Assembly: GCA_965645245.1 (NCBI GenBank)
Contig: OZ287081.1
Location: 1,054,001-1,118,000, forward strand
Length of the DNA: 64,000 bases
DNA from: Massalongia carnosa
Taxonomy: Eukaryota
Reading direction: 5' to 3'
The notes beneath the pieces are model-generated. The model was not told the origin of the DNA, searched no databases, and worked only from the letters and a program-made list of their open reading frames with translations. The translations under genes and the position numbers were made by a program. Below, piece by piece: positions 6,784-52,769 of the stretch (position 1 is the first letter of the stretch; every line of letters begins with the position of its first letter).

Positions 6784-9229
6784 TTTTTTTTATTCATTTA
6801 TTCATTAAGTGTATTCAACCTAAGGTTATGACACTAAACTATTTTAAGATATGGTTTTATTTTACAAATAAATCAACCCTTTATAACCCAACTATCTATC
6901 GTCAATATTGCCCCGTTTTTACTCCTTGTTAGTAACAACCTTTAGTAATCGAAATATAGATTTTACAATTTGTTTTTGTAAAGCTCGTGAATATTCCAGC
7001 ATAAATCATTTCTAATTTTATTGTTCGATCTCTCCCCAACCTCCCGTTTCGATATTTTCGTCATCGAGCTGACCTAGCATCCATTTTCTAGTCGCGATTT
7101 TGTTATCAACAATAAATTTAATCAAAATATTATTTCCGATCCTAGTATTAAACAACATTTTTAAAGTAATTATGTTATCGATATTTTGTTTCATGTTTAG
7201 GATTTCATTTGAATAATGTATGCAATTCATCAATAAGTGTTCTGGCGTTTGACGTTCGTTGCAGCGCCCTGAGCATTTTGACGAATTATAATCTTTCAAT
7301 CGGTGCAGATATGATCGAAAATAACCGTGTCCGAATTTCATTTGCATAATAGTCGCAAATATTAATTTCGAACAATTATTTGACAGATAATAAAAATTCA
7401 ATTTGCCAGGCTGCATTTCGAATTTCTCATAGTATTTGCCTTTTGACTTGCATTGTTGCCATTGATTCGCCCATGTGGCTAACATATTTCGATTTATTTG
7501 ACCCTTTACATACTCAAATGTTATTATCGAAGACTCGACTAGGATTCGACTATGTCCCGCTTTTGCTGCTTTATCTGCAATTTCATTTTTGACGATTTTC
7601 GAATGACTAGGAATCCACTGTAGAACTACCTGATAATTGTTTCCGAATAAGCATTTCGAGAATTTTCGAATTTGTTTTGCGTAAGTATGATTTGTCAAGT
7701 TCTGAATTTCGTTTATCGCGTTTATGCTATCGGAAAAAATCAAAATCTTTTTTTCCAAATTGAAGAGAATATTCGCAATTGTCAATTCGTATGCCCATTT
7801 TATTGCTTGTAGTATTGCATAAAGTTCAGCCTTTTAAATGCTTGACTGTTTGTTTAATTTCCAGCTTTTCGAAATCGTATGATGTTTGAGGAGACAATCT
7901 TTTTCGATAAAATGATTGAAGTTATCGGTGAAATTGTTCCAATTTCGCGTAATTGGTGCAAATGTGACAGCGGAAGTTGAAAATTTGGTTTTTGATCCAT
8001 CGGTATAGAGTAACATTCGCGATTTATCGGCGTTTATTGATTGAATTTTGATAATGTCGAATAATAACTTGACTTTGCTGTTTCTTGTGATCTTTCGATT
8101 TGGAACTTGATTTTACAAGACGGCTTCTATCCATGGTTTGATGAAATTATTTACTGATTCGAATTCATCAGTTTTGTGAACTATATCCGAAACGGAATGA
8201 AGAATACGGATAAGCTGACTAGGATGAGGTTTACTCGATTTTTTCTCGTCTTCGTTCCATTCAGCATATCTGTTGTTCCATAAACTAGTGTCAAAACCGA
8301 TGTTTTCGAATTTCACCGAATAGGTACTGGGAATTCTTTGACAAATAGGATTATTTTCGGCAATCTTCAATAATCGAATTGCGTATTTTTGATTTTTCAT
8401 CAACAATCGTAGCTTGGCTGGTAAAATATGCGATTCAATTTCCATCGCCCGAACAGGCGTGGTTTTGAATGTGCCTAAAATCTTTCGAATCATTCGATTT
8501 TGCAGATTCTGAAATAGCTTTTCAAATTTCTTTTGACCGTTATACCAGATTTCTGAGCCATAGTCCGAAATAGGAATAATGCATGACAAATAGAGCTGTC
8601 TGCAGGCAGTTGGCTTTAGTCCCCATTCAGACTTCATCAAATTTTGAATTGCGAAAAACGATCGATTTGCAGAAGCAATTCGCGTTTCGACGTGTTTTTT
8701 GTAATTTAGTTTTCGGTCTAACCAGACTCCTAACCATTTGACAGAATTTTTCGGTTCTAGTATTGTCTCGTTTGGTAATTGCGCTTTGTCTTTTGATGCA
8801 TTTCTTGACTTTTCGAAGTGAATCAACTCAGATATGTCGTTATCAAATTTGACATTATTCGTTGCGGCCCAATCAAAAGCTGTTTTGACGATAATTTCGA
8901 TTTCTTTGCAATTCTGTGTGGCAGTTTTATTTTCGACATATATTGCAACATCGTCTCTAAAGCTAGGTGAATGAGCATTGAATTTCATTCGTATTTTCGG
9001 AAATAAGTAACGAATATAAATCAGAAATAGAATTGGCGAAATAGGTGAACCTTGTGGAATTCCAGATTCGATATAGTACGTTTTGATTTTGTGTTCATCG
9101 AATATCAAATTGATCGATCGTTTTGTCATAAAATGCTTGATCCATTGAATAACTATACGAGATACATGCAGCTTTTTCATGATATTTAGTAATTGATTAA
9201 TCGAAACAAAGTCAAATGCTCCTTTGACA
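6784..9229 (-). mobile_element. LINE-A minus copy, 3' part (continues at 16141-16898)
   Basis: Poly-T at 6784; RT/RNase H ORFs 7018-7785 and 8113-9229; breaks at GCTCCTTTGACA (9218-9229), which recurs at 16141-16152. Confidence 0.95.
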
Positions 9230-9453
9230 CATGAAGTGACCATCGGTCCTCCTCTTTCTACACCATCGGTCCTCACCACGGAGACGCCAAAGGCCTCACC
9301 GTGGGGCGACCGTCAAACATATAGATTTGCTCCTATTTCTTCGCATCAAAACAATGCTAATTTAACGCGTTCACACGCGTCGCAGACGTACGTACGGAAG
9401 AGGATACGAATGCTAACCGCCGAGGGGTAGAATGCGCGCGTCCCTGCACCATG

Positions 9454-10189
9454 CTTCTAAGGGTTCAAGTCCCTTCATGCAGTCATCAGCTGGAAGAAGA
9501 TGTGGACCAAAGGAGCCGCATCATCCCCCACCCGGGTAGAGTCGACACGCGTTCTAGCTCCTGAGAGTTCAAGTCTCCCCATGCAGTCATCAGCTGGGAT
9601 CAACAGAACGCGTAAAGGCACCGGGGCGAATGTTGTCACCTCACGAAAACTCTATCTCGTAGCAGAATAACAATATCCCATTTAATAGGCCCGGCCTGTT
9701 AAATAAAATCGTGGAAAATACAGAGTCACAAAACACATAGTCATCAATCACACGTTGTATAAAGCACACAGTTATAAAGCACACAGTCACAAACATACAG
9801 TCACAAATACACAGTCAAAAACACACAGTCAACAAACACATAGTCACAAAAAACACAGTCACAAATCAATAACACGTCCCTGTAAAGGGGGTTCTGCGGG
9901 GGCTCGTTAAGACAGATCTGCACCCCGTTAATATCGGAGAACATATTTTTAGAGGTTCAAGTCCTTTCTAGCAGTCATCAGCTGAAAATAATGTATTTGG
10001 ACACGGGCATGGTGTGGATTTGACATGAGTAGACCTCGATGGATCACAAAACGAATAAAAAGAGTTCAGCGGAACTTCGTTAATATTGTTCTCGAAGACC
10101 TCGTTAATAAGATTTTCATAGACCTCGTTAACAACGTTCGGTCATACTCTTAAAGGTTCAAGTCCTTTTATGCAGTCATCGGCTAAGAG
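9454..10189 (+). ncRNA. Four copies of a ~45-nt structured RNA motif (closing stem, T-loop hairpin, GCAGTCATCRGCT)
   Basis: Copies at 9454-9496, 9559-9599, 9944-9990 and 10147-10189 with compensatory stem changes. Confidence 0.65.
9719..9866 (+). repeat. Degenerate ~14-nt C/A-rich tandem repeat (ACACAGTCACAAA-like)
   Basis: About ten units visible directly. Confidence 0.85.
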
Positions 10190-11008
10190 CTAAAGACGTA
10201 CGACACGGGTCAGCTATGTCTATCACACGGGTCTCCTTCGTCTACAATACGGAGCCCTCCGGCTGAAAGAAATAAAACATATAGATACATAGTGTAGGGT
10301 CACACCCTACACGATACAAGGGATTTGGGTTATGCAAACCATCCGATTGATGGCTACCGTGAGCAACACGGCCCGAGCCGGAGTCGTACCGGGGATGGTA
10401 GAGGCACCCTCGTAATCAAATAGGAAACCCTTGGGACAAGAAGAGGGAAATATACGAGGAACCCGTTAATTGATAAAAGTCTAGGCCCTGAGCTAATAGA
10501 CGAATTTCAAACGAGCTCACCTCCGAGTTGTCCTCGACTCGTTTTGGTTAGTAGGGACGGAAGATCGATACTATACTGCCTGGTCAGGAGCATAGTGCTC
10601 GAAATCCCTGCGAGACATAGTCGGTTCATAAATGGGAGACCTTTATGAATAACGCGAAGTGGGCGTAAAAAACCCGTGAGGCGTGGTATACAATGGCGGC
10701 CACCGTACGGAGACCGTCTGCATAGCCCGAGAGGACAGTATGCGCATGTCGGTGTATATAGAACAGGGAATGTCTATCTCGCTCGTAACGAGACCCCGTC
10801 GGTTCGCCGGCGCATAGGCTACGGCTAGACTCGCCCTTGAAATATGCTTAAGGAGTAAACTGGGTTTGACCTGTGCGAAAGGGACGTCGTTCACCCAAAT
10901 CGTAGAATTCATCAATAGTCTTGGGCCGTAAAACGCACCAGTGAGATAAACGAAAACTGGGATAGAGACTTCACGAAGGAGATGTCAACTCTATTTTATC
11001 ATTCTTAG

Positions 11009-14000
11009 CCGGTACATGTAGTCAAATGATTGGTAAAGCAACCGAAAACTCCGAAAATTGGATTACAATTCAAAGGAAAAGTTCGAATCATAATTCGAAC
11101 AAAGTCAATCGATTTGATGCACTCAAGGCCAGACGACTCGTGATTTCACCGAAAAATCCTGACACTCAAATCGACTCTATGAAGTTGCGTGATCAAATTA
11201 ACACGCTATTAAAAAACGCAAATTTAAACATCATCGTCAATACTGTTGAAAAGTCCAAAACCGGTCAGAATATCGTTCTCACCAATAGCCCTGACAACAA
11301 TGCCGAAGAATTGTTGAAAAATAAATTTTCATGGGAACACATTTTCGAATCACAAAGAATTCGAAAAGACGAATCCTGGTTTGAAGTCATAGCACATGGA
11401 GTAAATATCTCGTTATTCGATAATAACATGCAATATTTGCAAACCGAAATCGAAAAATACAATTCGAATATGTAACTATGCGATTTACCAAGATGGCTTG
11501 CTCGGGATCGTCAAAACAAAGTCAAGTCGTCGGTAGTTTTGACTTTCAATAATCAAAATCAAGCGTCAAACGCGTTAAGAGGCGTGAATATCGCTGGTAG
11601 ATATTGTGACACGGAAATATTTGCTTCCGTTCGTCCAAACACGCAATGTATTAATTGTCAGAAATTTGGAAATTAGCATTATCAATGCAAAAGTCCGGCA
11701 AAATGCAATAAATGCGCACAAAGTCATGAAACGCATAATCATGAATGCACAACATGCAAGTCTAAAATCGCATGCGCACATGCAATTCTGAAATGCGTCA
11801 ATTGCAACAAAAATCATCAATCGAACGATATAGGTTGCGAAATGTTTATCTCGCTAAATCCTAGAAAATCGAATGATGAATTAATGCTTGGTTAATGGCG
11901 GGACAACATTCGTTGACAAATATCGAAAATACACAAAATGTCAAATTTATTCAACATAATTGTGCAAAGTCAACGAATGCAATGATTTCGAGTCTGGAAT
12001 ATGCAGTATTAAATCGTGTTGAAATTGTTTTATTTAAGGAACAATGAACTCGAGAACAAAAAACAATTTCCCATCCGTCATTCACATGTATTATGCCGAA
12101 AATAGCGACTTATCGGCCGAGAGTAGCTATATGCGTTACAAAATGCAATCCAAAATTACAATGCACGCCTAGAACGGATCTTATAAACGATACTGATCTG
12201 CAAATTATCGAAATTACAATTGATGAAGTTCGAAAATGCAGATCTTTAATCTTTACAATGAAAAAAGTCTAAACGATCGAGAAACATATACAATCGATCG
12301 ACATTTAGTTAAATATCAACCCATATCAACTGATCAATTTGTCATATGTGGAGATTTCAATGCACATCATCGCTGGTAGAATTCGAAGATTCAAAATGCA
12401 GTTCGATCAGAAAATCTAGTCAAATGGTTAAAATTAAACAAATGTAGTTTGATAAATACGCCTGATCTATATACATTTTTTGCTCATTAAGGAAACTCTT
12501 CATCTATTATTGATTTAACATTTGCAATTTCTAAAATCGAAAACGCAATTACAAATTGGTCAATCGATGAAAACGCTGTCACGGGTTCAGATCATGAAGT
12601 TATTTGATTTGAATTTATCGCGTCTTTCAAGAACTTGACGTCACACGCAACCGCATTATCGAATAAATACAACTGCACTAAAGCAGATTGGGATAAATTC
12701 GCGAAGTTTCTAGACGAAAATGCAATAAACCACGAGTCCCAAATTAAAAGTCTATTGAACAATTATCAATTTGATGAATCAGCGTTATATTTGCAAAACG
12801 TTATCAAAAACGCGGCTGAAATGTTTATTCCGAAGACAAAAATATGCAAAAAATCGAAAAATTAGTGGTCGCAAGATTTAACCGGACTTCGAAAAATCAT
12901 GTGTAGAAATCGTCGAGAATGGAAGAATAATCCGTCCTATTTTAGTCATCAAATATTTAGACATAGTCGAATCGAGTACTTTCATGCAATTCGAAAAGCG
13001 AAACAGCAAACTTGGTTGGCTTTCCTCGAAAACGCAGCGAATAAAGACGTATTTACAGCTTATAAATACACTAAACCGCGCATGTTCGAAAAAATACCAC
13101 CTATTCAATACGAAAATAAGTTAAATGTTCAATTCGATCACAAATGCGATGCGTTTGTGTCAGCAATGTACACAAAAAACCCGTTCACGGATGATAATAT
13201 TGAAGATTTAACGAATCAAGACAGCGAAAATGACAACAATTGGCCGAATTTAACCGAAAATGAATTGCAAAATGCGATTAGTTTGTTTAATCCAAAGAAA
13301 GCTTGTGGACCTGATGCAATCAATTTCACAATAATTCAAAAATCGTTTCAACCATTGAAAAACGTGTTTTTTACAATTTATTCTAAATTTATACAAATCG
13401 GTTATCACCCGTTATGTTGGTGAACAGGACTCGGTGCTGTTTTAAAAAAACCTAATAAACCAGACTACTCGCTGCCAAAATCATATCGAATTATTACCTT
13501 ACTGAATTGTCTTGGTAAAATTGCGGAGAAAATAGTTGCTAATCGACTAGCCTACCTCGGCGAAAATTCGAGCTTGTTAGATACCGAACAAATGGGCGGA
13601 CGCAAAAATCATTCTATTATCGATGCGGTAATGGACGTCGTTCATGATATCGAAATCGGAAACCGAAACAAAAACGTTTTATCATGTCTATTACTCGATT
13701 TCAAAGGAGCATTTGACTTTGTTTCGATTAATCAATTGCTAAATATCATGAAAAAGCTGCATTTATCTCGCATAGTTATTCAATGGGTCAAGCATTTTAT
13801 AACAAAACGATCGATCAATTTGATATTCGATGAACACAAAAGCAAAACGTACTATATCGAATCTGGAATTCCAAAAGGTTCACCAATTTCGCCAATTCTA
13901 TTTCTGATTTATATTCGTTACTTATTTCCGAAAATACGAATGAAATTCAATGCTCATTCACCTAGCTTTATAGACGATGTTGCAATATATGTCGAAAATA

Positions 14001-16140
14001 AAACTGCCACACAGAATTGCAAAGAAATCGAAATTATCGTCAAAACAGCTTTTGATTGGGCCGCAACGAACAATGTTAAATTTGATGACGACAAATCTGA
14101 CTTGATTCACTTCGAAAAGTCAAGAAATGCATCAAAAGACAAAGTGCAATTACCAAACGAGAAAATACTAGAACCGAAAAATTCTGTCAAATGGTTAGGA
14201 GTCTGCTTAGACCGAAAACTAAATTACAAAAAACACGTCGAAACGCGAATTGCTTCTGCAAATCGATCGTTTTTCGCAATTCAAAATTTGATGAAGTCTG
14301 AATGGGGACTAAAGCCAACTGCATGCAGACAGCTCTATTTGTCATTCATTATTCCTATTTCGGACTATGGCTCAGAAATCTGGTATAACGGTCAAAAGAA
14401 ATATGAAAAGCTATTTCAGAATCTGCAAAATCGAATGATTCGAAAGATTTTAGGCACATTCAAAACCACGCCTGTTCGGGCGATGGAAATTGAATCGCAT
14501 ATTTTACCAGCCAAGCTACGATTGTTGATGAAAAATCAAAAATACGCAATTCGATTATTGAAGATTGCCGAAAATAATCCTATTTGTCCAAGAATTCCAA
14601 GTACCTATTCGGTGAAATTTGAAAACATCGGTTTTGACACTAGTTTATGGAACAACAGATATGCTGAATGGAACGAAGACGAGAAAAAATCGAGTAAACC
14701 TCATCCTAGTCAGCTTATCCGTATTCTTCATTCCGTTTCGGATAGAGTTCACAAAACTGATGAATTCGAATCAGTAAATAATTTCATCAAACCATGGAAG
14801 CCGTCTTGTAAAATCAAGTTCCAAATCGAAAGATCAAAAGAAACAGCAAAGTCAAGTTATTATTCGACTTTTTATTAAAAATTCAATCAATAAACACCGA
14901 TAAATTGCAAATGTTACTCTATACCGATAGATCAAAAACCGAGTTTTTAACTTGCTGTCACATTTGCACCAATTACGCGAAATTGGAACAATTTGACCGA
15001 TAACTTCAATCGTTTTATCTAAAAAGATTGTCTCCTCAAATATCATACGATTTCGAAAAGCTGGAAATTAAACAAACAGTCAAGCGTTAAAAACGCTGAA
15101 CTGTTTGCGATACTACAAGCAATAAAATGGGCATACAAATTGACAATTGCGAATATTCTCTTCAATTTGGAAAAAATGATTTGGATTTTTTCCGATAGCA
15201 TAAACGCGATAAACGAAATTCAGAACTTGACAAATCATACTTACGCAAAACAAACTCGAAAATTCTCGAAATGCTTATTCGGAAACAATTATCAGTTGGT
15301 TCTACAATGGATTCTCAGTCATTCGAAAATCGTCCAAAATGAAATTGCAGATAAAGCAGCAAAAGCGGGACATAGTCGAATCCTAGTCGAGTCTTCGATA
15401 ATAACATTTGATTATGTAAAGGGTCAAATAAATCGAAATATGTTAGCCACATGGGCGAATCAATGGCAACAATGTAAGTCAAAAGGCAGATACTATGAGA
15501 AATTCGAAATGCAGCCGTGCAAATCGAGTTTTTATTATCTGTCGAATAATTGTTCGAAATTAATATTTGCGACTATTATGCAAATGAAATTCGGACACGG
15601 TTATTTTCGATCATATCTGCACCGATTGAAAGATTATAATTCTTCAAAATGCACAGGGCGCTGCAACGAACGTCAAACGCCAGAACACTTATTGATGAAT
15701 TGCATAAATTATTCAAATGAAATCCTAAACAAGAAACAAAATATCGATACCACAATTACTTTAAAAATGTTGTTTAATACTAGGATCGGAAATAATATTT
15801 TGATTAAATTTATTGTTGATAACAAAATCGCGACTAGAAAATGGATGCTAGGTCAGCTCGATGACGAAAATATCGAAGCGGGAGGTTGGGGAGAGATTGA
15901 ACAGTAAAATTAGAAATGATTTCTGCTGGAATATTCACGAGCTTTACAAAAACAAATTGTAAAATCGATATTTCGATTACTAAAGGTTGTTACTAACACG
16001 GAGTAAAAACGGGGCAATATTGACGATAGATAGTTGGGTTATAAATGGTTGATTTATTCATAAAATAAAACCATATCTTAAAATAGTTTATTGTCATAAC
16101 CTTAGGTTGAATACACTTAATGAATAAATAAATAAAAAAA
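11009..16140 (+). mobile_element. LINE-A, 5'-truncated within ORF1, degenerate; 3' part of the chimeric insert 9230-16140
   Basis: Match to ORF1 starts at CCGGTACATG (11009); ORF2 has several stops and frameshifts; A tail followed by TSD. Confidence 0.95.
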
Positions 16141-16898
16141 GCTCCTTTGACATCGAGTAATAGACATAATAAAACGTTTTTGTTTCGGTTTGCGATTTCG
16201 ATATCATGAACGACGTTTATTACCGCATCGATTGCAGAATGATTTTTGCGTCCGCCCATTTGTTCGGTATATAACAAGCTCAAATTTTCGCCGAGGTAGG
16301 CTAGTCGATTAGCAACAATTTTCTCCGCAATTTTACCAAGACAATTCAGTAAGGTAATAATTCGATATGATTTTGGCAGCGAGTAGTCTGGTTTATTAGG
16401 TTTTATTAAAACTGCACCGAGTCCTGTTCGCCAACATAACGGGTGATAACCGAATTGTATAAATTTAGAATAAATTGTAAAAAACACGTTTTTCAATGGT
16501 TAAAACGATTTTTGAATTATTGTGAAATTGAATGCATCAGGTCCACATGATTTCTTTGGATTAAACAAACTAATCGTATTTTGCAATTTCGTTTAAATTC
16601 GGCCGATTGTTGTCATTTTCGATGTCTTGATTCGTTAAATCTTCAATATTATCGTCCGTGAACGGGTTTTTTTTGTGTACATTGCTGACACAAACGCATC
16701 GCATTTGTGATCGAATTGAATATTTAACTTATTTTCATATTGAATAGGTGGTATTTTTTTCGAACATGCGAGGTTTAGTGTATTTATAAGCTGTAAATAC
16801 GTCTTTATTCGCTGCGTTTTCGAGGAAAGCCAACCAAGTTTTGCTGTTTCGCTTTTCGAATTGCATGAAAGTACTCGATTCGACTATGTCTAAATGTT
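16141..16898 (-). mobile_element. Continuation of the LINE-A minus copy (RT N-terminal region)
   Basis: Resumes exactly at the TSD; GYHPLCWR...LLDVKGA on the minus strand. Confidence 0.93.
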
Positions 16899-17725
16899 AA
16901 TCAGCAAAAAGCCAACCCCCAAAACATCGGTACCCTATATTTTGATATACTGAAACTTTCCCAACTTATTCTCCTCATTCTTCTCATTCATTTGAGCCTA
17001 CCAGAAGCTAAAACCTATCAGAATTGGGTACAGGAGAGCTCTCCCACTGCTCCTGCAGAGTTTTCCTCGCCGTCTGTCCGCCCCTTCACCAAAAAGCGCG
17101 TCCAAAAAATCTACAAAACACAAAAACACCAACAACAACATCAAAAATCGCTCGATTTTCGATAATTCTTCGGTTTAATTGTCGCATAAATCTCATCTAT
17201 TATCACAAAAATTATCTACAAAATATCATCACTGTCGCGTAACTGTACAACCTGTTCTCGAGACAACAAAACTTCTTGGTGTTCATTTGAAATTTAAGGT
17301 TACCGGTACCGTATACACCATTCCATTTTGGGTTTTTTCGATTTTCGTTGAACTGCCGACCAACAATCTGCTCAAACGAAGGGGAAAAACGTCTGAAATA
17401 GGGTTAAACCAAAGGCCCTGTTTCAGGCTAACCAGAATAGGAAGTCTCCTCTCTCTCATTGTACTTGATTTTTATTTCTGGATCAAAAACATTTTTAAAA
17501 AAAAAAAATTTTCTGTTCGATCGTAAAATTCTTATTATATTCCATATATCGTAGTGTCAAGGTAAACAGTTAAATAAGATCTATTGCCTAAGCGAGGAAC
17601 GGTCTATTTTAACTCGACTAGGATTTATTTGACTTGTTATTGTCAAATAAATAGGGTTTGGAAAGCAAGAGTCTTTAGACCAGTAAATCGGCGTAAAAAC
17701 ATCTCTATTCTGACTATTACGTCCA

Positions 17726-43454: not shown

Positions 43455-45316
43455 TCAAGCGGCGACTTGGAGCGGCTGGCGTGCACGATAGAAGCTAAGT
43501 CTAGAATAGAGATAGATCAACAGCTACATAAAGGGTTTGCGGACTCAGCGGATGTAGTACGACGCACATTCGCTGTGTAAGCGCATGGGGTGCGCGTAGA
43601 CAGCGTCGACACAGTTAAGGCACAAGCTACCATCAAGAGTCTAGAGAAACAGAATGAGCAGCTTCATCCGGGACTGCAGATCTGCCGCATTGCATGGACC
43701 AAAAGGGCAGTTTCAGAAGCCAAGATTCACTCCTCGCTAATAGTTGAAGTAGCCACCGCAGAGACGGCAAACAGACTGATTAAAGAGGGTCTTCTACAGG
43801 ATTACTCGCATAGAATATGTGAGTACTTCGATAAGAACTGTCGTATAAAACAGTGCTTTTACTGCCAGAAGTACGGACATACGGGCACCGCATGCAAGAA
43901 CGCCCTTCGATGCGCAGGCTGCGCTTAAGGACATCGCTCGCAAGCATGCAAAGCGCCTGCGGATCGACGCAAGTGCGCCGTGTGCGGCGGGAATCATCGG
44001 GCGTGGTCTCACCTCTGCCTCGTCCGAAAAGAGGAGAAGGAGCGCCTGAATGGCACCTGGAAGAACCGACCAACGTGGCATGTCGAGACGGAGGCGGTTG
44101 TCCTTCCTCGACAAAGTCAGACAGTAGAACGACGCAATAACGCCGGCGACACGTACACCTGCGCCAACACGTCATTAGGCAGTGCGTGAGCGAAGCCGCT
44201 CGCTAACCCCCGAGGCCGAGGAGCTGAACGAGTTCACTCAGGATGGCTCCACGATTATGAGCCTCGACATTAATACAGTCACCAACAGCTTTCCGGCTCT
44301 CTACTCAACATACGGCAAGAGGGCACACTCGCAGGGACCTGGAGAAGGCTCCTCGCTATCTCCTACTAGGCGCAGAGCTAGCTTGTCGGTTGTACCTGAC
44401 TCACAGCCGGCCTCGTCTAAGCCAACCCCCAAAATATCGGTACCCTATATTTTGATATACTGAAACTTTCCCAACTTATTCTCCTCATTCTTCTCATTCA
44501 TTTGAGCCTACCAGAAGCTTAAACCCATCAGAATTGGGTACAGGAGAGCTCTTCCACTGCTCCTGCAGAGTTTTCCTCGCGGTCTGTCCGCCCCTTAACC
44601 AAAAAGCGCGTCCAAAAAATCTACAAAACACAAAAACACCAACAACAACGTCAAAAATCGCTCGATTTTCGATATTTCTTCGGTTTAATTGTCGCATAGA
44701 TCTCATCTATTATCACAAAAATTATCTACAAAATATCATCACTGTCGCGTAACTGTACAACCTGTTCTCGAGAAAACAAAACTTCTTGGTGTTCATTTGA
44801 AATTTAAGGTTACCGGTACCGTATACACTATTCCATTTTGGGTTTTTTCGATTTTCGTTGAACTGCCGACCAACAATCTGCTGAAACGAAGGGGAAAAAC
44901 GTCTGAAATAGGGTTAAACCAAAGGCCCTGTTTCAGGCTAACCAGAATAGGAAGTCTCCTCTCTCTCATTGTACTTGATTTTTATTTCTGGATCAAAAAC
45001 ATTTTTAAAAAAAAAAAAAAAAAATTTTTCTGTTCGATCGTAAAATTCTTATTATATTCCATATATCGTAGTGTCAAGGTAAAGAGTTAAATAAGATCTA
45101 TTGCCTAAGCGAGGAACGGTCTATTTTAACTCGACTAGGATTTATTTGACTTGTTATTGTCAAATAAATAGGGTTTGGAAAGCAAGAGTCTTTAGACCAG
45201 TAAATCGGTGTAAAAACTCTCTATTCTGACTATTACGTCCGGGGAACGTCAGAATAAATTATTTGGTGGCGATAAAGGGGATATAGCAAAGGCAACATCG
45301 ATTTATTTATAAATCC

Positions 45317-46900
45317 ATGTTTAACGCGGTAATGAACCGCCGGAATATACCAAGGACACCACCCCCAGCCGGTCCCGCCCCCCTATCGACCCCTTACCCG
45401 GCCCCCCCCCGACACTCCCCGGGACCATCTCCGGTGGCGTTGATAGGGAGCTCTCCCCGTCTTGAACCTATGGATCAAACTCGCGAATATGCATCAGCCC
45501 CGTCAACACCGACACCAAAGGCAACGAAATTCCCATCGGGTCCATTTTCCACTATCTTGCCGATGCCTTCATTGAACTTAAACATTGGATCAAGCCCACC
45601 AATCAAACGAAATAAAAGACGCACATTTGACGAACATTCGAGAGATAGCCAAGAAGCGATCAATCGGGCAAATTCAATTGAGCTTCTAAAGTCGGCCAAA
45701 AAAGCATTATTGCAATCATTTGTACTGGACCAAAATCCACAAACGGCTATCGTAATTGACAACGTTAATTCGTTGATTTCGAAAAAATCAATCAATTTAC
45801 AAACATCCTTAGATATGATTAACTATAAAATGGGCATAGTACTTGATCAAACTAGTCATCTTTCCTCAAAAACGTCACAACAACAAACGACTCCACTACA
45901 GAATGGTCCAAAAATCCAAAAACCGGTTGTTAAATTGAACGAAAATTCAATTATCGAAAATCAGACCATTCGCAAAGGAGCTACCGGGGTCTCTGGTAAC
46001 AATGTTAGCACAACCGGTACATGGAGTCAAATGCTTGGAAAAGCAACCGAAAACTCCGAAAATTGGACTACTATTAAAAGGAAAAGTTCGAATCATAATT
46101 CGAACAAAGTCGATCGATTTGATGCAATCAAGGCCAGACGACTCGTGATTTCACCGAAAAATCCTGACGCTCAAATCGACTCTATGAAGTTGCGTGATGA
46201 AATTAACGCGCTATTAAAAAACGCAAATTTAAACATCATCGTCAATACTGTTGAAAAGTCCAAAACCGGTCAGAATATCGTTCTCACCACTAGCCCTGAC
46301 AACAATGCCGAAGAATTGTTGAAAAATAAATCTTCATGGGAACACATTTTCGAATCACAAAGAATTCGAAAAGACGAATCCTGGTTTAAAGTCATAGCAC
46401 ACGGAGTAAATATCTCGTTATTCGATAATAACATGCAATATTTGCAAACCGAAATCGAAAAATACAATTCGAATATGCAACTATGCGATTTACCAAGATG
46501 GCTTGCTCGGGATCGTCAAAACAAAGTCACGTCGTCGGTAGTTTTGACTTTCAATAATCAAAATCAAGCGTCAAACGCGTTAAGAGGCGTGAATATCGCG
46601 GGTAGACATTGTGACACGGAAATATTTGCTTCCGTTCGTCTAAACACGCAATGTATTAATTGTCAGAAATTTGGACATAAGCATTATCAATGCAAAAGTC
46701 CGGCAAAATGCAATATATGCGCACAAAGTCATGAAACGCATAATCATGAATGCACAACATGCAAGTCTAAAATCGCATGCGCACATGCAATTCTGAAATG
46801 CGTCAATTGCAACAAAAATCATCAATCGAACGATATAGGTTGCGAAATGTTTATCTCGCTAAATCCTAGAAAATCGAATGATGAATTAATGCTTGGTTAA
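45317..46900 (+). CDS. LINE-A ORF1, intact 527 aa
   Basis: Pro-rich N-terminus; CINCQKFGHKHYQC, CNICAQSH, CVNCNKNH knuckles; stop overlaps the ORF2 ATG (TAATG). Confidence 0.92.
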   Translation: MFNAVMNRRNIPRTPPPAGPAPLSTPYPAPPRHSPGPSPVALIGSSPRLEPMDQTREYASAPSTPTPKATKFPSGPFSTILPMPSLNLNIGSSPPIKRNKRRTFDEHSRDSQEAINRANSIELLKSAKKALLQSFVLDQNPQTAIVIDNVNSLISKKSINLQTSLDMINYKMGIVLDQTSHLSSKTSQQQTTPLQNGPKIQKPVVKLNENSIIENQTIRKGATGVSGNNVSTTGTWSQMLGKATENSENWTTIKRKSSNHNSNKVDRFDAIKARRLVISPKNPDAQIDSMKLRDEINALLKNANLNIIVNTVEKSKTGQNIVLTTSPDNNAEELLKNKSSWEHIFESQRIRKDESWFKVIAHGVNISLFDNNMQYLQTEIEKYNSNMQLCDLPRWLARDRQNKVTSSVVLTFNNQNQASNALRGVNIAGRHCDTEIFASVRLNTQCINCQKFGHKHYQCKSPAKCNICAQSHETHNHECTTCKSKIACAHAILKCVNCNKNHQSNDIGCEMFISLNPRKSNDELMLG

Positions 46901-49900
46901 TGGCGGGACAACATTCGTTGACAAATATCGAAAATACACAAAATGTCAAATTTATTCAACATAATTGTGCAAAGTCAACGAATGCAATGATTTCGTGTCT
47001 GGAATATGCAGTATTAAATCGTGTTGATATTGTTTTATTTCAGGAACCATGGACGCGAGATCAAAAAACAATTTCCCATCCGTCATTCACATGTATTATG
47101 CCGAAAATAGCGACTTATCGGCCGAGAGTAGCTATATTCGTTACAAAATGCAATCCAAAATTACAATGCACGCCTAGAACGGATCTTATAAACGATACTG
47201 ATCTGCAAATTATCGAAATTACAATTGATGAAGTTCGAAAAGTGCAGATCTTTAACCTTTACAATGAAAAAAGTCTAAACGATCGAGAAACATATACAAT
47301 CGATCGACTTTTAGTTAAATATCATCCTATATCAACTGATCAATTTGTCATATGTGGAGATTTCAATGCACATCATAGCTGGTGGAATTCGAAGATTCAA
47401 AATGCAATTCGATCAGAAAATCTAGTCAAATGGTTAAAATTAAACAAATGTAGTTTGATAAATACGCCTGATCTATATACATTTTTTGCTCATTCAGGAA
47501 ACTCTTCATCTATTATTGATTTAACATTTGCAAATTCTAAAATCGAAAACGCAATTACAAATTGGTCAATCGATGAAAACGCAGTCACGGGTTCAGATCA
47601 TGAAGTTATTCGATTTGAACTTATCGCGTCTTTCAAGAACTTGACGTCACACGCAACCGCATTATCGAATAAATACAACTGCAATAAAGCCGATTGGGAT
47701 AAATTCGCGAAGTTTCTAGACGAAAATGCAGTAAACTACGAGTCCCAAATACAAAGTCTATTGAACAATTATCAATTTGATGAATCAGCGTTATATTTGC
47801 AAAACGTTATCAAAAACGCGGCTGAAATGTTTATTCCGAAGACAAAAATATGCGCAAAATCGAAAAATTGGTGGTCGCAAGATTTATCCGGACTTCGAAA
47901 AATCATGTGTAGACATCGTCGAGAATGGAAGAATAATCCGTCCTATTTTAGTCATCAAACATTTAGACATAGTCGAATCGAGTACTTTCATGCAATTCGA
48001 AAAGCGAAACAGCAAACTTGGTTGGCTTTCCTCGAAAACGCAGCGAATAAAGACGTATTTACAGCTTATAAATACACTAAACCGTGCATGTTCGAAAAAA
48101 TACCACCTATTCAATATGAAAATAAGTTAAATGTTCAATTCGATCACAAATGCGATGCGTTTGTGTCAGCAATGTACACAAAAAACCCGTTCACGGATGA
48201 TAATATTGAAGATTTAACGAATCAAGACAGCGAAAATGACAACAATTGGCCGAATTTAACCGAAAATGAATTGCAAAATGCGATTAGTTTGTTTAATCCA
48301 AAGAAATCATGTGGACCTGATGCAATCAATTTCACAATAATTCAAAAATCGTTTCAACCATTGAAAAACGTGTTTTTTACTATTTATTCTAAGTTTATAC
48401 AAATCGGTTTTCACCCGTTATGTTGGCGAACAGGACTCGGTGCTGTTTTAAAAAAAACCTAATAAACCAGACTACTCGCTGCCAAAATCATATCGAATTA
48501 TTACCTTACTGAATTTTCTTGGTAAAATTGCGGAGAAAATAGTTGCTAATCGACTAGCCTACCTCGGCGAAAATTCGAGCTTGTTAGATACCGAACAAAT
48601 GGGCGGACGGAAAAATCATTCTGCAACCGATGCGGTAATGAACGTCGTTCATGATATCGAAATCGCTAACCGAAACAAAAACGTTTTATCATGTCTATTA
48701 CTCGATGTCAAAGGAGCATTTGACTTTGTTTCGATTAATCAATTGCTTAATGTCATGAAAAAGCTGCATTTATCTCGCATAGTTATTCAATGGGTCAAGC
48801 ATTTTATGACAAAACGATCGATCAATTTGATATTCGATGAACACAAAAGCAAAACGTACTATATCGAATCTGGAATTCCACAAGGTTCACCAATTTCGCC
48901 AATTCTATTTCTGATTTATATTCGTTACTTATTTCCGAAAATACGAATGAAATTCAATGCTCATTCACCTAGCTTTATAGACGATGTTGCAATATATTTC
49001 GAAAATAAAACTGCCACACAGAATTGCAAAGAAATCGAAATTATCGTCAAAACAGCTTTTGATTGGGCCGCAACGAATAATGTCAAATTTGATGACGACA
49101 AATCTGAGTTGATTCACTTCGAAAAGTCAAGAAATGCATCAAAAGACAAAGTGCAATTACCAAACGGGACAATACTAGAACCGAAAAATTCTGTCAAATG
49201 GTTAGGAGTCTGGTTAGACCGAAAACTAAATTACAAAAAACACGTCGAAACGCGAATTGCTTCTGCAAATCGATCGTTTTTCGCAATTCAAAATTTGATG
49301 AAGTCTGAATGGGGACTAAAGCCAACTGCATGCAGACAGCTCTATCTGTCATGTATTATTCCTATTTCGGACTATGGCTCAGAAATCTGGTATAACGGTC
49401 AAAAGAAATATGAAAAGCTATTTCAGAATCTGCAAAATCGAATGATTCGAAAGATTTTAGGCACATTCAAAACCACGCCTGTTCAGGCGATGGAAATTGA
49501 ATCGCATATTTTACCAGCCAAGCTACGATTGTTGATGAAAAATCAAAAATACGCAATTCGATTATTGAAGATTGCCGAAAATAATCCTATTTGTCAAAGA
49601 ATTCCCAGTACCTATTCTGTGAAATTCGAAAACATCGGTTTTGACACTAGTTTATGGAACAACAGATATGCTGAATGGAACGAAGACGAGAAAAAATCGA
49701 GTAAACCTCATCCTAGTCAGCTTATCCGTATTCTTCATTCCGTTTCGGATATAGTTCACAAAACTGATGAATTCGAATCAGTAAATAATTTCATCAAACC
49801 ATGGAAGCCGTCTTGTAAAATCAAGTTCCAAATCGAAAGATCCAAAGAAACAGCAAAGTCAAGTTATTAATCGACTTTATCAAAAATCCAATCAATAAAC

Positions 49901-50914
49901 GCAGGTAAATCGCGAATTTTACTCTATACCGATGGATCAAAAACCGAGTTTTCAACTTCCGCTGTCACATTTGCACCAATTATGCGAAATTGGAACAATT
50001 TCACCGATAACTTCAATCGTTTTATCGAAAAAGATTGTCTCCTCAAACATCATACGATTTCGAAAAGCTGGAAATTAAACAAACAGTCAAGCGTTAAAAA
50101 CGCTGAACTCTATGCGATACTACAAGCAATAAAATGGGCATACAAATTGACAATTGCGAATATTCTCTTCAATTTGGAAAAAACGATTTGGATTTTTTCC
50201 GATAGCATAAACGCGATAAACGAAATTCAGAACTTGACAAATCATACTTACGCAAAACAAATTCGAAAATTCTCGAAATGCTTATTCGGAAACAATTATC
50301 AGGTGGTTCTACAATGGATTCCTAGTCATTCGAAAATCGTCGAAAATGAAATTGCAGATAAAGCAGCAAAAGCGGGACATAGTCGAATCCTAGTCGAGTC
50401 TTCGATAATAACATTTGATTATGTAAAGGGTCAAATAAATCGAAATATGTTAGCCACATGGGAGAATCAATGGCAACAATGCAAGTCAAAAGGCAAATAC
50501 TATGAGAAATTCGAAATGCAGCCGGGCAAATCGAGTTTTTATTATCTGTCGAATAATTGTTCGAAATTAATATTTGCGACTATTATGCAAATGAAATTCG
50601 GACACGGTTATTTTCGATCATATCTGCACCGATTGAAAGATTATAATTCGTCAAAATGCACAGGGCGCTGCAACGAACGTCAAACGCCAGAACACTTATT
50701 GATGAATTGCATACATTATTCAAATGAAATCCTAAACATGAAACAAAATATCGATACCACAATTACTTTAAAAATGTTGTTTAATACTAGGATCGGAAAT
50801 AATATTTTGATTAAATTTATTGTTGATAACAAAATCGCGACTAGAAAATGGATGCTAGGTCAGCTCGATGACGAAAATATCGAAACGGGAGGTTGGGGAG
50901 AGATCGAACAGTAA
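46900..50914 (+). pseudogene. LINE-A ORF2 (APE-RT-RNase H) with two lesions
   Basis: +1 A in the run at 48450-57 (possibly a sequencing homopolymer error) and TAT>TAA at 49868-70. Confidence 0.93.
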
Positions 50915-52769
50915 AATTAGAAATGATTTATGCTGGAATATTTACGAGCTTTACAAAAACAAATTGTAAAATCGATATTTCGATTACTAAAGGTTGTTAC
51001 TAACACGGAGTTAAAACGGGGCAATATTGACGATAGATAGTTGGGTTATAAAGGGTTGATTTATTTGTAAAATAAAACCATATCTTAAAATAGTTTAGTG
51101 TCATAACCTTAGGTTGAATACACTTAATGAATAAATAAAAATAAAAAAAGCCGGCCTCGTCTTCTCATAGGTCTTACCGCGCCCTTGCACTCCTTCGTTA
51201 CCCCATGCCTCCTCCGGCGCTGAAGGCGCATTCGCAGACGCAGCCGCAGCCCAAGCCGAAGCGCGGCCGCCCGCCGCTTCACAAAATCAGCGGCAAAGTC
51301 TCCCGAAATACCCAGTAATGGCGGGACAAACATCTATTTCAATATTACAGTATAACAACAGAAAGAGCAAGAACCGGGTCATGACCCCTCTACTGGCGGA
51401 CAAGAGAATAGAGGAGTATGACGTCTTAGCTATTCAGGAACCATGACGCAACCCCAGCGTTTGCACGTCGCACAATCCGTTCAATTCCGGCATTTATCTT
51501 CCGTTTATGTCGAATGAGAATATAGGTGCGTGTTTCTATAATAATAAAAGATTAGATGTGAATTCTTGGGCTGTGGACATCCTCACGCCGGACGTGTGCA
51601 CAATAAGACTAAGAATATATGCGAGTAATGAGCCACGATACATCAATATACATAACGTCTACTGTCAATTACCCGTCGTGCATTCTTCTCGCCAGCTACT
51701 CGAAAGCGTAAAGGCGGTGAGACGAAAGATTCATGAGCGGGATAAAGAGGAATACGTCTTGCTGGGAGACTTTAATCTGCATCACCCTCTGTGGAGTGGC
51801 CCCTCCAGGCCTACACAACATCAAGCGGCGGACCAGCTTCTCGACGTCGTTCGTGCGGCATCTATGCAGCTCACTCTACCTAGTGGCTCTATCACTTGGG
51901 AGGCACGCAGATCCACGAGCATGATAGACCTAGTATTCATGACCGACTCCCTGAGACACAGTCTGCTGCACTGTTATACTCGTCAGGAGATGAACCAATC
52001 GTCCAATCACATACCCGTCTCTACCAAGCTGACGCTAGAGGTGGAGCTGAGCGTGAAACGTCGCAAGAGAGCATGGAAGCGAGCCGACGAAGAAAATCTG
52101 GCGAAAAGTCTTCGTCTACCCGTAGTCACGGAGTGGCCGCGTACCCCGCAAGCCATAGAAGACTAAGCGAATCGACTACAGTCCGCTATTATTGACGCAA
52201 TAAATGAGACCTTTCCCTAGAAGGCTCCCTGCCCCGTCTCTAAACCCTTCTGGAACGAGCGTTGCGCTGTCGCTGTGGCGGAGACTCGACGTCGAAGACG
52301 CGAGTGGACGAGGTGGAAGACAGAGGCAACGTGGCGCAGATATCTCAAATCGGCGGATAAAAAGAAGAAGATCATCATCAAGTTCGCCGCCGAATGGGTT
52401 GGGTTATTAAAATGAGAGCCCAACCCAATAGGTTTTGGGTTGGGTTGGGTTATCGTTGGGTTACCCAACAGAAAAGGGTACTGATATATGGACACCCTAT
52501 CCGCTACCTAGACACACCCTCTCCGGCTACCTAGACACACCCCTTCCGGATTTTCAATCATTATAGATTTATTTTAATGACTATCACAAAGTAAAATGTG
52601 GATTATAGATAAAACATTTATTTCGTTGACGTCGAACTACCATAAAGACTATCACAAATTCGTATGCTTTCTTCTATCGAATATCGAAGTATGTCGCCCA
52701 TTTATCGCTTCCTATTCAAAACTCGTAAAGAAAGTCTCTCGCCATCTCTTCCTTTACTCTCCACTTTCT

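Follow-up and report, generated by a model that had tools for sequence, protein, structure and literature searches.

What are the four copies of a short hairpin-bearing repeat that lie on the plus strand of contig OZ287081.1 of Massalongia carnosa, within the 64,000 nt analysed here (nt 1,054,001–1,118,000; hereafter the window, in whose own numbering all positions are given)? A preliminary description, made from the letters of the window, had taken them for an RNA motif with a T-loop and variable but still pairing stems. In the current study, comparison with relatives shows the four repeats to be evolutionarily conserved modules of a predicted folded RNA. The motif does not stand alone but belongs to a non-coding, high-copy leader that is fused to a 5'-truncated long interspersed nuclear element (LINE), a context missed in the preliminary description, and the whole unit, to judge from the window sequence, has the architecture of a MINE/WEIRD-like chimeric retroelement (see below).

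Four modules and their fold

The four copies, with the stems first given for them and their outer limits (nt 9454–10189), were recovered by direct reading, none being expected by chance. The pattern GTTCAAGTCYNNNNNWRCAGTCATCRGCT has four matches in the 64-kb window (nt 9463, 9567, 9955 and 10156), all on the plus strand, and no match in 100 dinucleotide-preserving shuffles. The blocks GTTCAAGTC and GCAGTCATCRGCT have four occurrences each in the 64 kb, none of them outside the copies, with shuffle means of 0.5 and 0.08, respectively. The outer stem of copy 2, ACGCGTTCT (9547) with AGAACGCGT (9605), is also present as quoted. The hairpin and its repetition were thus seen correctly, but the extent assigned to the unit was too small: the full unit, here termed the module, measures ~90–107 nt, and the copies as first delimited are the apical cores of the modules.

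As derived from aligned units of the member loci (described below), the module is a long irregular stem leading to a three-way junction, which carries a T-loop hairpin (UUCAAGU) and the near-invariant segment GCAGUCAUCAGCU. An outer helix of ~8 bp (P00) encloses P0 (CYCGU with ACGGG); between P0 and the next helix, P1, lies an internal loop with UAAUACUGG.. on its 5' side, and P1 itself has up to 11 bp, many of them G-U. At the junction, the T-loop hairpin P2 (5 bp, UUCAAGU) is followed by YNYG and then by CAGU-CAUCA-GCUG, a potential 4-bp helix (P3). The 16 nt formerly called a linker are present, but they are mostly able to pair as this small hairpin and are not a plain linker, so that the tip would be a three-way junction rather than a bulged hairpin. 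Among hits of the covariance model described below, the P3 loop occurs as CAUCA, CACCG, CAUUA and UAUCA, and in one lineage the helix reads GAGU..GCUC, a compensatory change. Module 3 displays the parts in the order P00, P0 (CCCGU/ACGGG), loop UAAUAUCGG, P1, T-loop hairpin and GCAGUCAUCAGCU. The T-loop hairpin, of the GG UUCAAGU CC type, is present in all four window copies.

Short-window folding gave z-scores of +0.45, +0.04 and +0.05 for three of the four copies, and of −3.09 for copy 2 only. Since the folding energy is unexceptional in three copies, the case for a fold must come from covariation in relatives. The first covariation test used an alignment of 14 units made by MAFFT only, with no structure fitting, and took as its structure the minimum-energy fold of one member; in the control, pairing partners were slid by 1–3 columns, which retains relatedness. 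In this alignment 83.4% of the cells are paired (33–47% when slid), two-sided changes are found at 19 of 36 pairs, and none of 500 shuffles reached the observed values. A covariance model, R1, was also searched against the window and 42 of the 45 member loci, leaving out L030, L032 and L059 (which overlap L009, L022 and L058) and the 18 non-member loci. It returned 121 matches at expectation values (E) up to 1, of which 97 are distinct, from the window and 42 fungal-type metagenome loci, and in every one of these 43 sources the matches are confined to one strand. Across the 97 rows, which were fitted to R1 and include many close relatives, so that the figures are counts and not independent events, 88.1% of the cells are paired (41–50% when slid) and two-sided changes occur at 32 of 36 pairs, transversions included (one pair has GC:37, CG:28). 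The T-loop is at least 90% conserved in the same rows. Forty-seven of the 97 are without the exact search pattern, and of the 42 among these with an aligned core nearly all keep TTCAAGT.

In the 97 distinct matches G-U or U-G cells number 359, against 118 for A-C or C-A, and this excess points to the plus strand as the RNA; the LINE is sense on this strand too. The original proposal, that selection acts on the fold of a plus-strand RNA, is borne out by the pairing in both alignments together with the G-U excess. The construction of a covariance model had been suggested as a check on this proposal; it has now been carried out, and the homologues covary in the unfitted as well as in the fitted alignment. 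Run on the window with filters off, R1 recovers all four modules on the plus strand only and nothing else of note.

Two further features of the window touch the modules. The stretch nt 10453–10528 has the "shell" of a module (CCCGTTAAT .. stem .. AAACGAG) but no T-loop core, and is a weak match to R1 (7.1 bits, E 1). A palindrome, ACGCGT, stands on both arms of the module 2 outer stem (9547–9552 and 9608–9613), and is kept in the L009 and L015 relatives. The palindrome may simply be a stem that is complementary to itself, or else a DNA site, in the latter case presumably of the MluI-box type.

The remark that the motif matches no recognized family was likewise upheld. The 64-kb window has no Rfam 15 match at gathering score, the 15 member loci searched have none at E up to 0.5, and in the leader a search at E up to 10 gave one noise match (E 0.19), elsewhere in the leader. 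The tRNA model RF00005 has no match at E up to 10 in nt 9200–11100, nor at E up to 0.5 in the 15 loci, and ARAGORN found no tRNA gene in the window or in the 45 member loci. Families of the signal recognition particle (SRP) are without a match at E up to 10 (leader) or 0.5 (15 loci), and the hammerhead, hepatitis delta virus (HDV), twister, pistol and hatchet models are without a match at E up to 10 in the leader. In a text search of the literature the linker words were not found among the matches listed, which match the tRNA-like word only. The hairpin does have the features of a T-arm, i.e. a 5-bp stem, a G53-C61 closing pair and a loop fitting UUCRANY. The 3' strand of the T-stem runs into YNYGCAGUCAUCAGCU and not into an acceptor strand; it is the 5' strand that is continuous with the closing stem. 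A tRNA was accordingly rejected, as only the T-arm is present and neither ARAGORN nor RF00005 detects a cloverleaf. A C/D-box reading of the minus-strand CUGAUGA was rejected as well, no D box being visible by eye and the G-U bias being contrary to it.

The chimeric LINE insertion

The modules occupy the 5' part of a composite insertion, the features of which are collected in Table 1. An older, minus-strand LINE is split into two parts, nt 9229–6784 and nt 16898–16137, which overlap at reference 48706–48721, and the same 12 bases are found on both sides of the interruption. These observations identify nt 9230–16140 as one 6.9-kb insertion. Its LINE portion retains the C-terminal part of ORF1 (open reading frame 1) and the endonuclease, reverse transcriptase and RNase H domains (Pfam); from this domain set (APE, RT and RNase H) we take the LINE to belong to the Tad1/I-type clade. 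Leader and LINE meet at nt 11008–11010 (..TCTTAGC/CGGTAC), with 1–2 bases common to the leader and the LINE, and the first in-frame ATG of the residual ORF1, at nt 11026, lies beyond this joint.

Table 1. Position and strand of the modules, the leader and the other parts of the chimeric insertion (window numbering)
Feature	Position (nt)	Strand	Remarks
Target-site duplication, left copy	9218..9229		12 bp, GCTCCTTTGACA; inside older minus-strand LINE
Non-coding leader, 5' part of chimera	9230..11009	+	~1.78 kb; contains all 4 modules
5'-terminal short tandem repeat	9240..9275	+	ACCATCGGTCCTC...; direct reading
Module 1	9424..9529	+	R1 46.8 bits, E 1e-12; contains copy 1 core as first described, 9454-9498
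Module 2	9539..9625	+	R1 with filters off, 38.7 bits, E 3e-10; short
Module 2 closing stem	9547-9555 / 9605-9613	+	contains ACGCGT; direct reading
Tandem repeat between modules 2 and 3	9716..9870	+	CACAGTCACAAA-type; direct reading
Module 3	9916..10020	+	R1 82.5 bits, E 2e-23; best fit to family consensus
Module 4	10115..10221	+	R1 60.4 bits
Conserved non-coding 3' domain of leader	10284..11009	+	~700 nt; 60-72% identity to most member loci
3'-terminal hairpin of leader	10962..10994	+	ATAGAG..CTCTAT enclosing CTTC..GGAG; RNAalifold, 9 lineages
Single-stranded 3' tail of leader	10995..11009	+	~15 nt; window TCTTAGC, consensus YCTTGGC
5'-truncated LINE with A-rich tail	11010..16140	+	reference 46014-51151; 97% identity to copy at 44419-51150
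Target-site duplication, right copy	16141..16152		12 bp, GCTCCTTTGACA; directly after A-rich LINE tail

In a self-comparison of the window the leader (nt 9230–11008) is unique. Stop-free frames within it do not exceed 113 aa on either strand, the longest on the plus strand (77 aa) entering from nt 9197. In the 3' domain, tblastx matches are spread evenly over all six frames, which indicates that this domain is conserved but not coding; protein coding by the leader was rejected on the strength of these two results. Its terminal hairpin has 10 pairs, 8 of which show two-sided changes. Nor does the leader appear to be an ordinary LINE 5' untranslated region (UTR), as the canonical copy (nt 44419–51150) and the other LINE copies of the window are without it and none of the junctions seen falls at the start of ORF1. 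The possibility that the motif belonged to an already catalogued repeat, raised in the preliminary description, is answered in two parts: the region does lie in a repeat family, but no catalogue entry was found for the RNA module.

The surroundings are transposon-rich and of fungal type. They include several non-LTR (non-long terminal repeat) elements with endonuclease, reverse transcriptase and RNase H domains (Pfam), a chromodomain gypsy element, and Tc1- and pogo-type transposases. Beyond the chimera, a piece of a plus-strand LINE 5' UTR (nt 16909–17724, reference 44419–45240) gives a further instance of nested LINE insertions.

Relatives of the leader and known chimeras

The leader is present in public runs of four organisms and in a run labelled lichen metagenome. 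In run X1, 3060 contigs align to it with 90–99% likeness across the whole 1.78 kb, so that in X1 it is a diverse, high-copy repeat. In one run a single contig of 8164 nt covers nt 9262–11008 and has a different upstream flank. The X1 contigs show back-steps of 33–34 bases and loose ends at nt 9239–9274, indicating that the number of ACCATCGGTCCTC-type repeats varies at the 5' end of the leader (nt 9230–9280). The CACAGTCACAAA-type repeat also varies in length between runs, with joints that skip 53 bases (X1, X4) and a 14-base deletion (X5). The window copy departs from the letters common to runs X1, X4, X5 and X7 chiefly in having T in place of C and A in place of G (17 and 13, respectively, of the 61 listed changes in the comparison with X1), which suggests that this copy has undergone decay of the repeat-induced point mutation (RIP) or deamination type. 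Within module 4 the window has T at nt 10169 and A at nt 10185, where the family consensus has C and G.

A metagenome scan for GTTCAAGTC-N7-GCAGTCATC gave 63 loci. Forty-five of these are members, with AGCT(G) after the match and common flanks, and 18 are unrelated chance matches. Where genes adjoin the member loci they are fungal, e.g. Fungal_trans_2. A pattern of 22 specified bases had no exact match in one genome for each of 185,579 prokaryote species, and none in viral contigs. In the member loci the modules are single or in arrays, with periods of 112–119, 139, 183, 255, 366 and 730. Related leaders carry 2–5 modules, the 700-nt conserved 3' domain and the covarying terminal hairpin, and end in ..YCUUGGC(C). 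At the DNA level YCTTGG(C)(C) is where these 3' ends line up in 27 loci and the window; beyond it, even leaders that are nearly identical differ from one another. Segments of LINE protein lie downstream of the modules, on the same strand as the motif, in 14 of the 63 loci, and have 12 different start points (ORF1 aa398; APE 111; RT 1, 6, 34, 75, 131, 161–163, 235, 270 and 284); none of the junctions seen lies at the start of ORF1. Two further loci have a weak RNase H-like match, below the Pfam cut-off.

Some member loci depart from the common plan. L006 and L016 (1338–1536) have three minimal cores of 43–47 nt, spaced 63–89 nt apart and lacking the outer rod, in which P2 is AAUGG/CCAUU, with a U-A pair where other copies have R-Y pairs. 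Loci of the L002 type (L003, L019, L022, L033, L035, L046, L047 and L060) consist of 183-bp tandem units, where a second CGTTAAGAC .. ACACGGGC layer and a ATAGGAGA/TCTCCTAT helix surround the module; these wrapped layers imply that the CGUUAA / ACACGGG pairing is used in a nested fashion. Antisense frames of 135–180 aa run over the module arrays of L014:299–754(−), L025:323–727(−) and L018:846–1385(+). They were rejected as genes, because successive modules are read in different frames and no Pfam match was obtained, and are best regarded as chance frames.

A precedent for the element is found in Magnaporthe, where MINE consists of a full-length, 1.1-kb non-coding WEIRD segment fused to a 5'-truncated MGL and bounded by flanking repeats of 10–20 bp (PMC2104539). 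According to that paper, WEIRD has no solo copies, no relatives in other genomes and no known function, the switching sites of MINE follow the consensus GCC*A/U, and template switching by reverse transcriptase was proposed as the origin of the WEIRD-MGL chimeras (PMC2104539). MINE and the window chimera are alike in having a non-coding 5' part of ~1–2 kb (1.1 kb for WEIRD, 1.78 kb for the leader), the 3' end of which is constant and directly adjoins the LINE. MINE and the leader family also share a LINE truncated at many 5' positions in the same orientation, and a leader that occurs in fusion with a LINE and not by itself. The 10–20-bp flanking duplication of MINE has its like in the 12 bp of the window chimera, which for the leader family is shown in the window only. 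The ..GCC* consensus would be compatible with a leader ending in ..GGC(C), while the junction of the window in the LINE (..AACC/GGTAC) fits GCC*A/U only partly. A difference is that for WEIRD PMC2104539 reports neither a homologue in other genomes nor an RNA structure, whereas the leader family has many lineages and covarying modules. The type of element, then, has a precedent; for the module, for the conserved family of leaders and for the fixed 3' terminus of these leaders there appears to be no match in Rfam 15 or in the literature searched.

Other systems share single features with the chimera. In the U6 small nuclear RNA-L1 chimeras of mammals, a 5'-truncated LINE is reportedly preceded by a stable, small nuclear RNA that is attached through its exact 3' end, a joint explained by template switching of the LINE reverse transcriptase. 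The leader chimera is similar to what is said of U6-L1 in having an exact 3' end joined to a truncated LINE; U6, however, is one of the housekeeping RNAs, and its fold and gene are known; the leader is long, repetitive, present in many copies and without a known cellular role. The module also resembles a tRNA T-arm, and thereby the head of a short interspersed nuclear element (SINE), in that a 5-bp stem closed by G-C and the 7-nt UUCAAGU form a sequence that is canonical for T-loops and B boxes. The leader modules also stand, as a SINE head does, on the 5' side of a non-autonomous, LINE-dependent element. Unlike tRNAs or SINE heads, they have no cloverleaf and seemingly no A box at the normal distance, carry a conserved 13-nt element after the T-stem, and occur in 2–5 copies with long closing stems of their own. 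The 5' protein-binding RNA of R2 and the SRP9/14-bound Alu domain, a closing helix bearing two small hairpins, are known to tie RNAs to the LINE machinery. By analogy, the modules may resemble them as a folded 5' domain that brings an RNA to the retrotransposition complex; neither sequence nor model matches connect them with the modules, and the parallel is one of analogy only.

Possible roles of the leader and its modules

A constant leader end, variable LINE starts and one target-site duplication around the whole are the signature of a reverse transcriptase switching onto the 3' end of another RNA. The best explanation overall, which we put forward tentatively, is that the modules are structured parts of a leader RNA that serves as acceptor in template jumps, and act as repeated units of ribonucleoprotein binding or folding. 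The leader would be a discrete RNA, probably not polyadenylated because no A run is present at any joint. On ceasing to copy the LINE RNA, the LINE reverse transcriptase would jump to the 3' end of the leader RNA, where ..GGC(C) would supply microhomology of the GCC*A/U kind. The least certain step concerns the modules themselves, which may act as RNA, as repeated, compactly folded, putative binding units that stabilise the leader RNA. By analogy with SINE heads and the R2 5' RNA, they might hold it in or near the LINE ribonucleoprotein, and a leader bearing modules would thereby be a preferred acceptor. A binding or folding role of this kind would explain why, out of all RNAs, the leader is captured repeatedly. 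Each new chimera would gain a leader that is again transcribable and recruitable.

Several points weigh against this explanation. The larger alignment is fitted to its model and rich in close relatives, so its counts are not independent, and most changes in P2 are transitions, which RIP-like decay also produces. The outermost pair of P3 competes with the U-G/U-A closing pair of P1 that was given originally; in an alignment not fitted to structure (A2) the P1 closing pair is UA in 4 of 23 rows and CG in 1 of 23, data which fit the original pairing better than the outer pair of P3. In the window, shuffled sequences fold as well as three of the four copies. Insertion as a whole unit is shown for the window only, the LINE 3' ends of the other loci lying beyond their 1.5-kb flanks. 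The likeness to WEIRD is one of architecture, the protein-binding role is a guess by analogy, and the expression, ends and strand of the leader RNA are presumed from DNA. Lastly, the T-loop sequence equals the B box of RNA polymerase III (Pol III) promoters and CAGCTG is an E-box, so that the invariant parts can also be read at the DNA level.

At that level the modules would be promoter or insulator monomers whose invariant blocks bind proteins as DNA, GGTTCAAGTCC being a Pol III B box bound by TFIIIC, CAGCTG an E-box and ACGCGT, near module 2, a further site, and each new copy would receive an internal promoter or a silencing barrier, as with the monomers of the mouse L1 5' UTR. The T-arm sequence fits the B-box consensus as we understand it, the modules are tandem and variable in number (at the periods given above), abundance on the scale of X1 requires transcribable copies, and both stem arms retain ACGCGT in module 2, as they do in the L009 and L015 relatives. 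None of this explains, however, why the arms stay complementary through two-sided changes over ~36 pairs, or why G-U exceeds A-C by 3:1 on one strand. There seems to be no A box at a workable distance: a partial, A-box-like ACTGG, judged by eye against the consensus as we understand it, lies ~15 nt before the B box and has no counterpart in modules 1 and 2. A leader of 1.8 kb with T runs is improbable as a Pol III transcript (TTTT is found at nt 10994–10997, 11–12 nt before the leader/LINE junction), and loop positions 59–60, which are free in a B box, are >90% conserved. A DNA-level role is therefore rather improbable as the explanation of the modules, and it can coexist with one as RNA. Conservation of the fold as RNA would also agree with a stability or processing signal, in which the junction and its T-loop form a roadblock to Xrn1, or mimic the tRNA elbow for RNase P/Z or exportin, and so protect or trim the leader RNA. 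A compact tandem junction with invariant loops is indeed reminiscent of the tandem exonuclease-resistant RNAs (xrRNAs) of flaviviruses, as these are commonly described, and the T-loop is canonical, with its G-C closing pair and UUCAAGU. Against this stand the non-tRNA topology, with an insert on the 3' side of the T-stem, and the ARAGORN and Rfam results reported above, tRNA included; in addition, no ring-closing pseudoknot partner was identified, and the ends of retrocopies and contigs do not pile up at the 5' edges of modules, contigs being poor evidence for ends. The modules also start ~190 nt inside the leader, so that its very 5' end would be unprotected, and we consider a signal of this type quite unlikely. 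A role in translation, also named in the preliminary description, is a candidate only.

Lower still must be placed the view that the modules have no present function and are decayed relics of a tRNA-derived SINE head that was duplicated inside the leader, with the apparent covariation the product of common ancestry and of transitions caused by RIP. The T-arm does have the look of a tRNA derivative, many of the changes are transitions, and the window copy differs from the consensus mostly by T for C and A for G, but ~11 divergent leader lineages keep the loops while the stems differ, transversions included, 88% of the cells are paired (41–50% in slid controls, in which relatedness is retained), and the loops are also kept in matches that were not selected by pattern. 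Simple decay is thus very unlikely. Self-cleavage had been listed among the functions to be considered, and retroelements do often carry ribozymes, such as the HDV-like ribozymes of R2 and L1Tc and the hammerheads of Penelope-like elements and retrozymes. Read on the minus strand, the linker is AGCUGAUGACUGC, where CUGAUGA could be used in a hammerhead-like core; a new class on the plus strand would be the other option. The junction core is invariant. The ribozyme models named above gave no match in the leader at E up to 10, however, and the minus strand, by eye, has no helix II and has G-C in place of A15.1-U16.1 (numbering as we understand it), while the G-U excess speaks against a minus-strand RNA. 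All four modules and the ~190 nt upstream of them survive in one retrocopy, i.e. were copied into one complementary DNA, which efficient cleavage would prevent; self-cleaving modules are the least credible of the explanations considered, and highly improbable.

The template-jump explanation can be taken a step further. Throughout the filamentous ascomycetes, LINEs of the Tad1 type might have a conserved class of partner RNAs, made up of such leaders and including the unexplained WEIRD RNA of Magnaporthe. The T-loop junction modules of these leaders would bind the LINE protein complex, and a stalled reverse transcriptase would be steered to the ..GGCC end, so that otherwise dead, 5'-truncated copies are capped with a 5' module open to transcription and recruitment, in a dedicated form of RNA-guided 5'-end rescue. 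In this full form the proposal is a long shot, although not a negligible one.

Fungal LINE chimeras with a non-coding leader have, in the literature searched, been described for Magnaporthe only. The window and the 45 related loci point to a widespread leader family that is conserved in sequence and structure, with its modules, 3' domain and fixed 3' end, and the covariance model can be applied to any fungal genome. For RNA biology, the family adds a covariation-supported T-loop junction motif that is not in Rfam 15. For the biology of LINEs, the modules offer a handle on how the reverse transcriptase chooses the RNA to which it jumps, and on how 5'-truncated copies may regain a transcribable 5' end.

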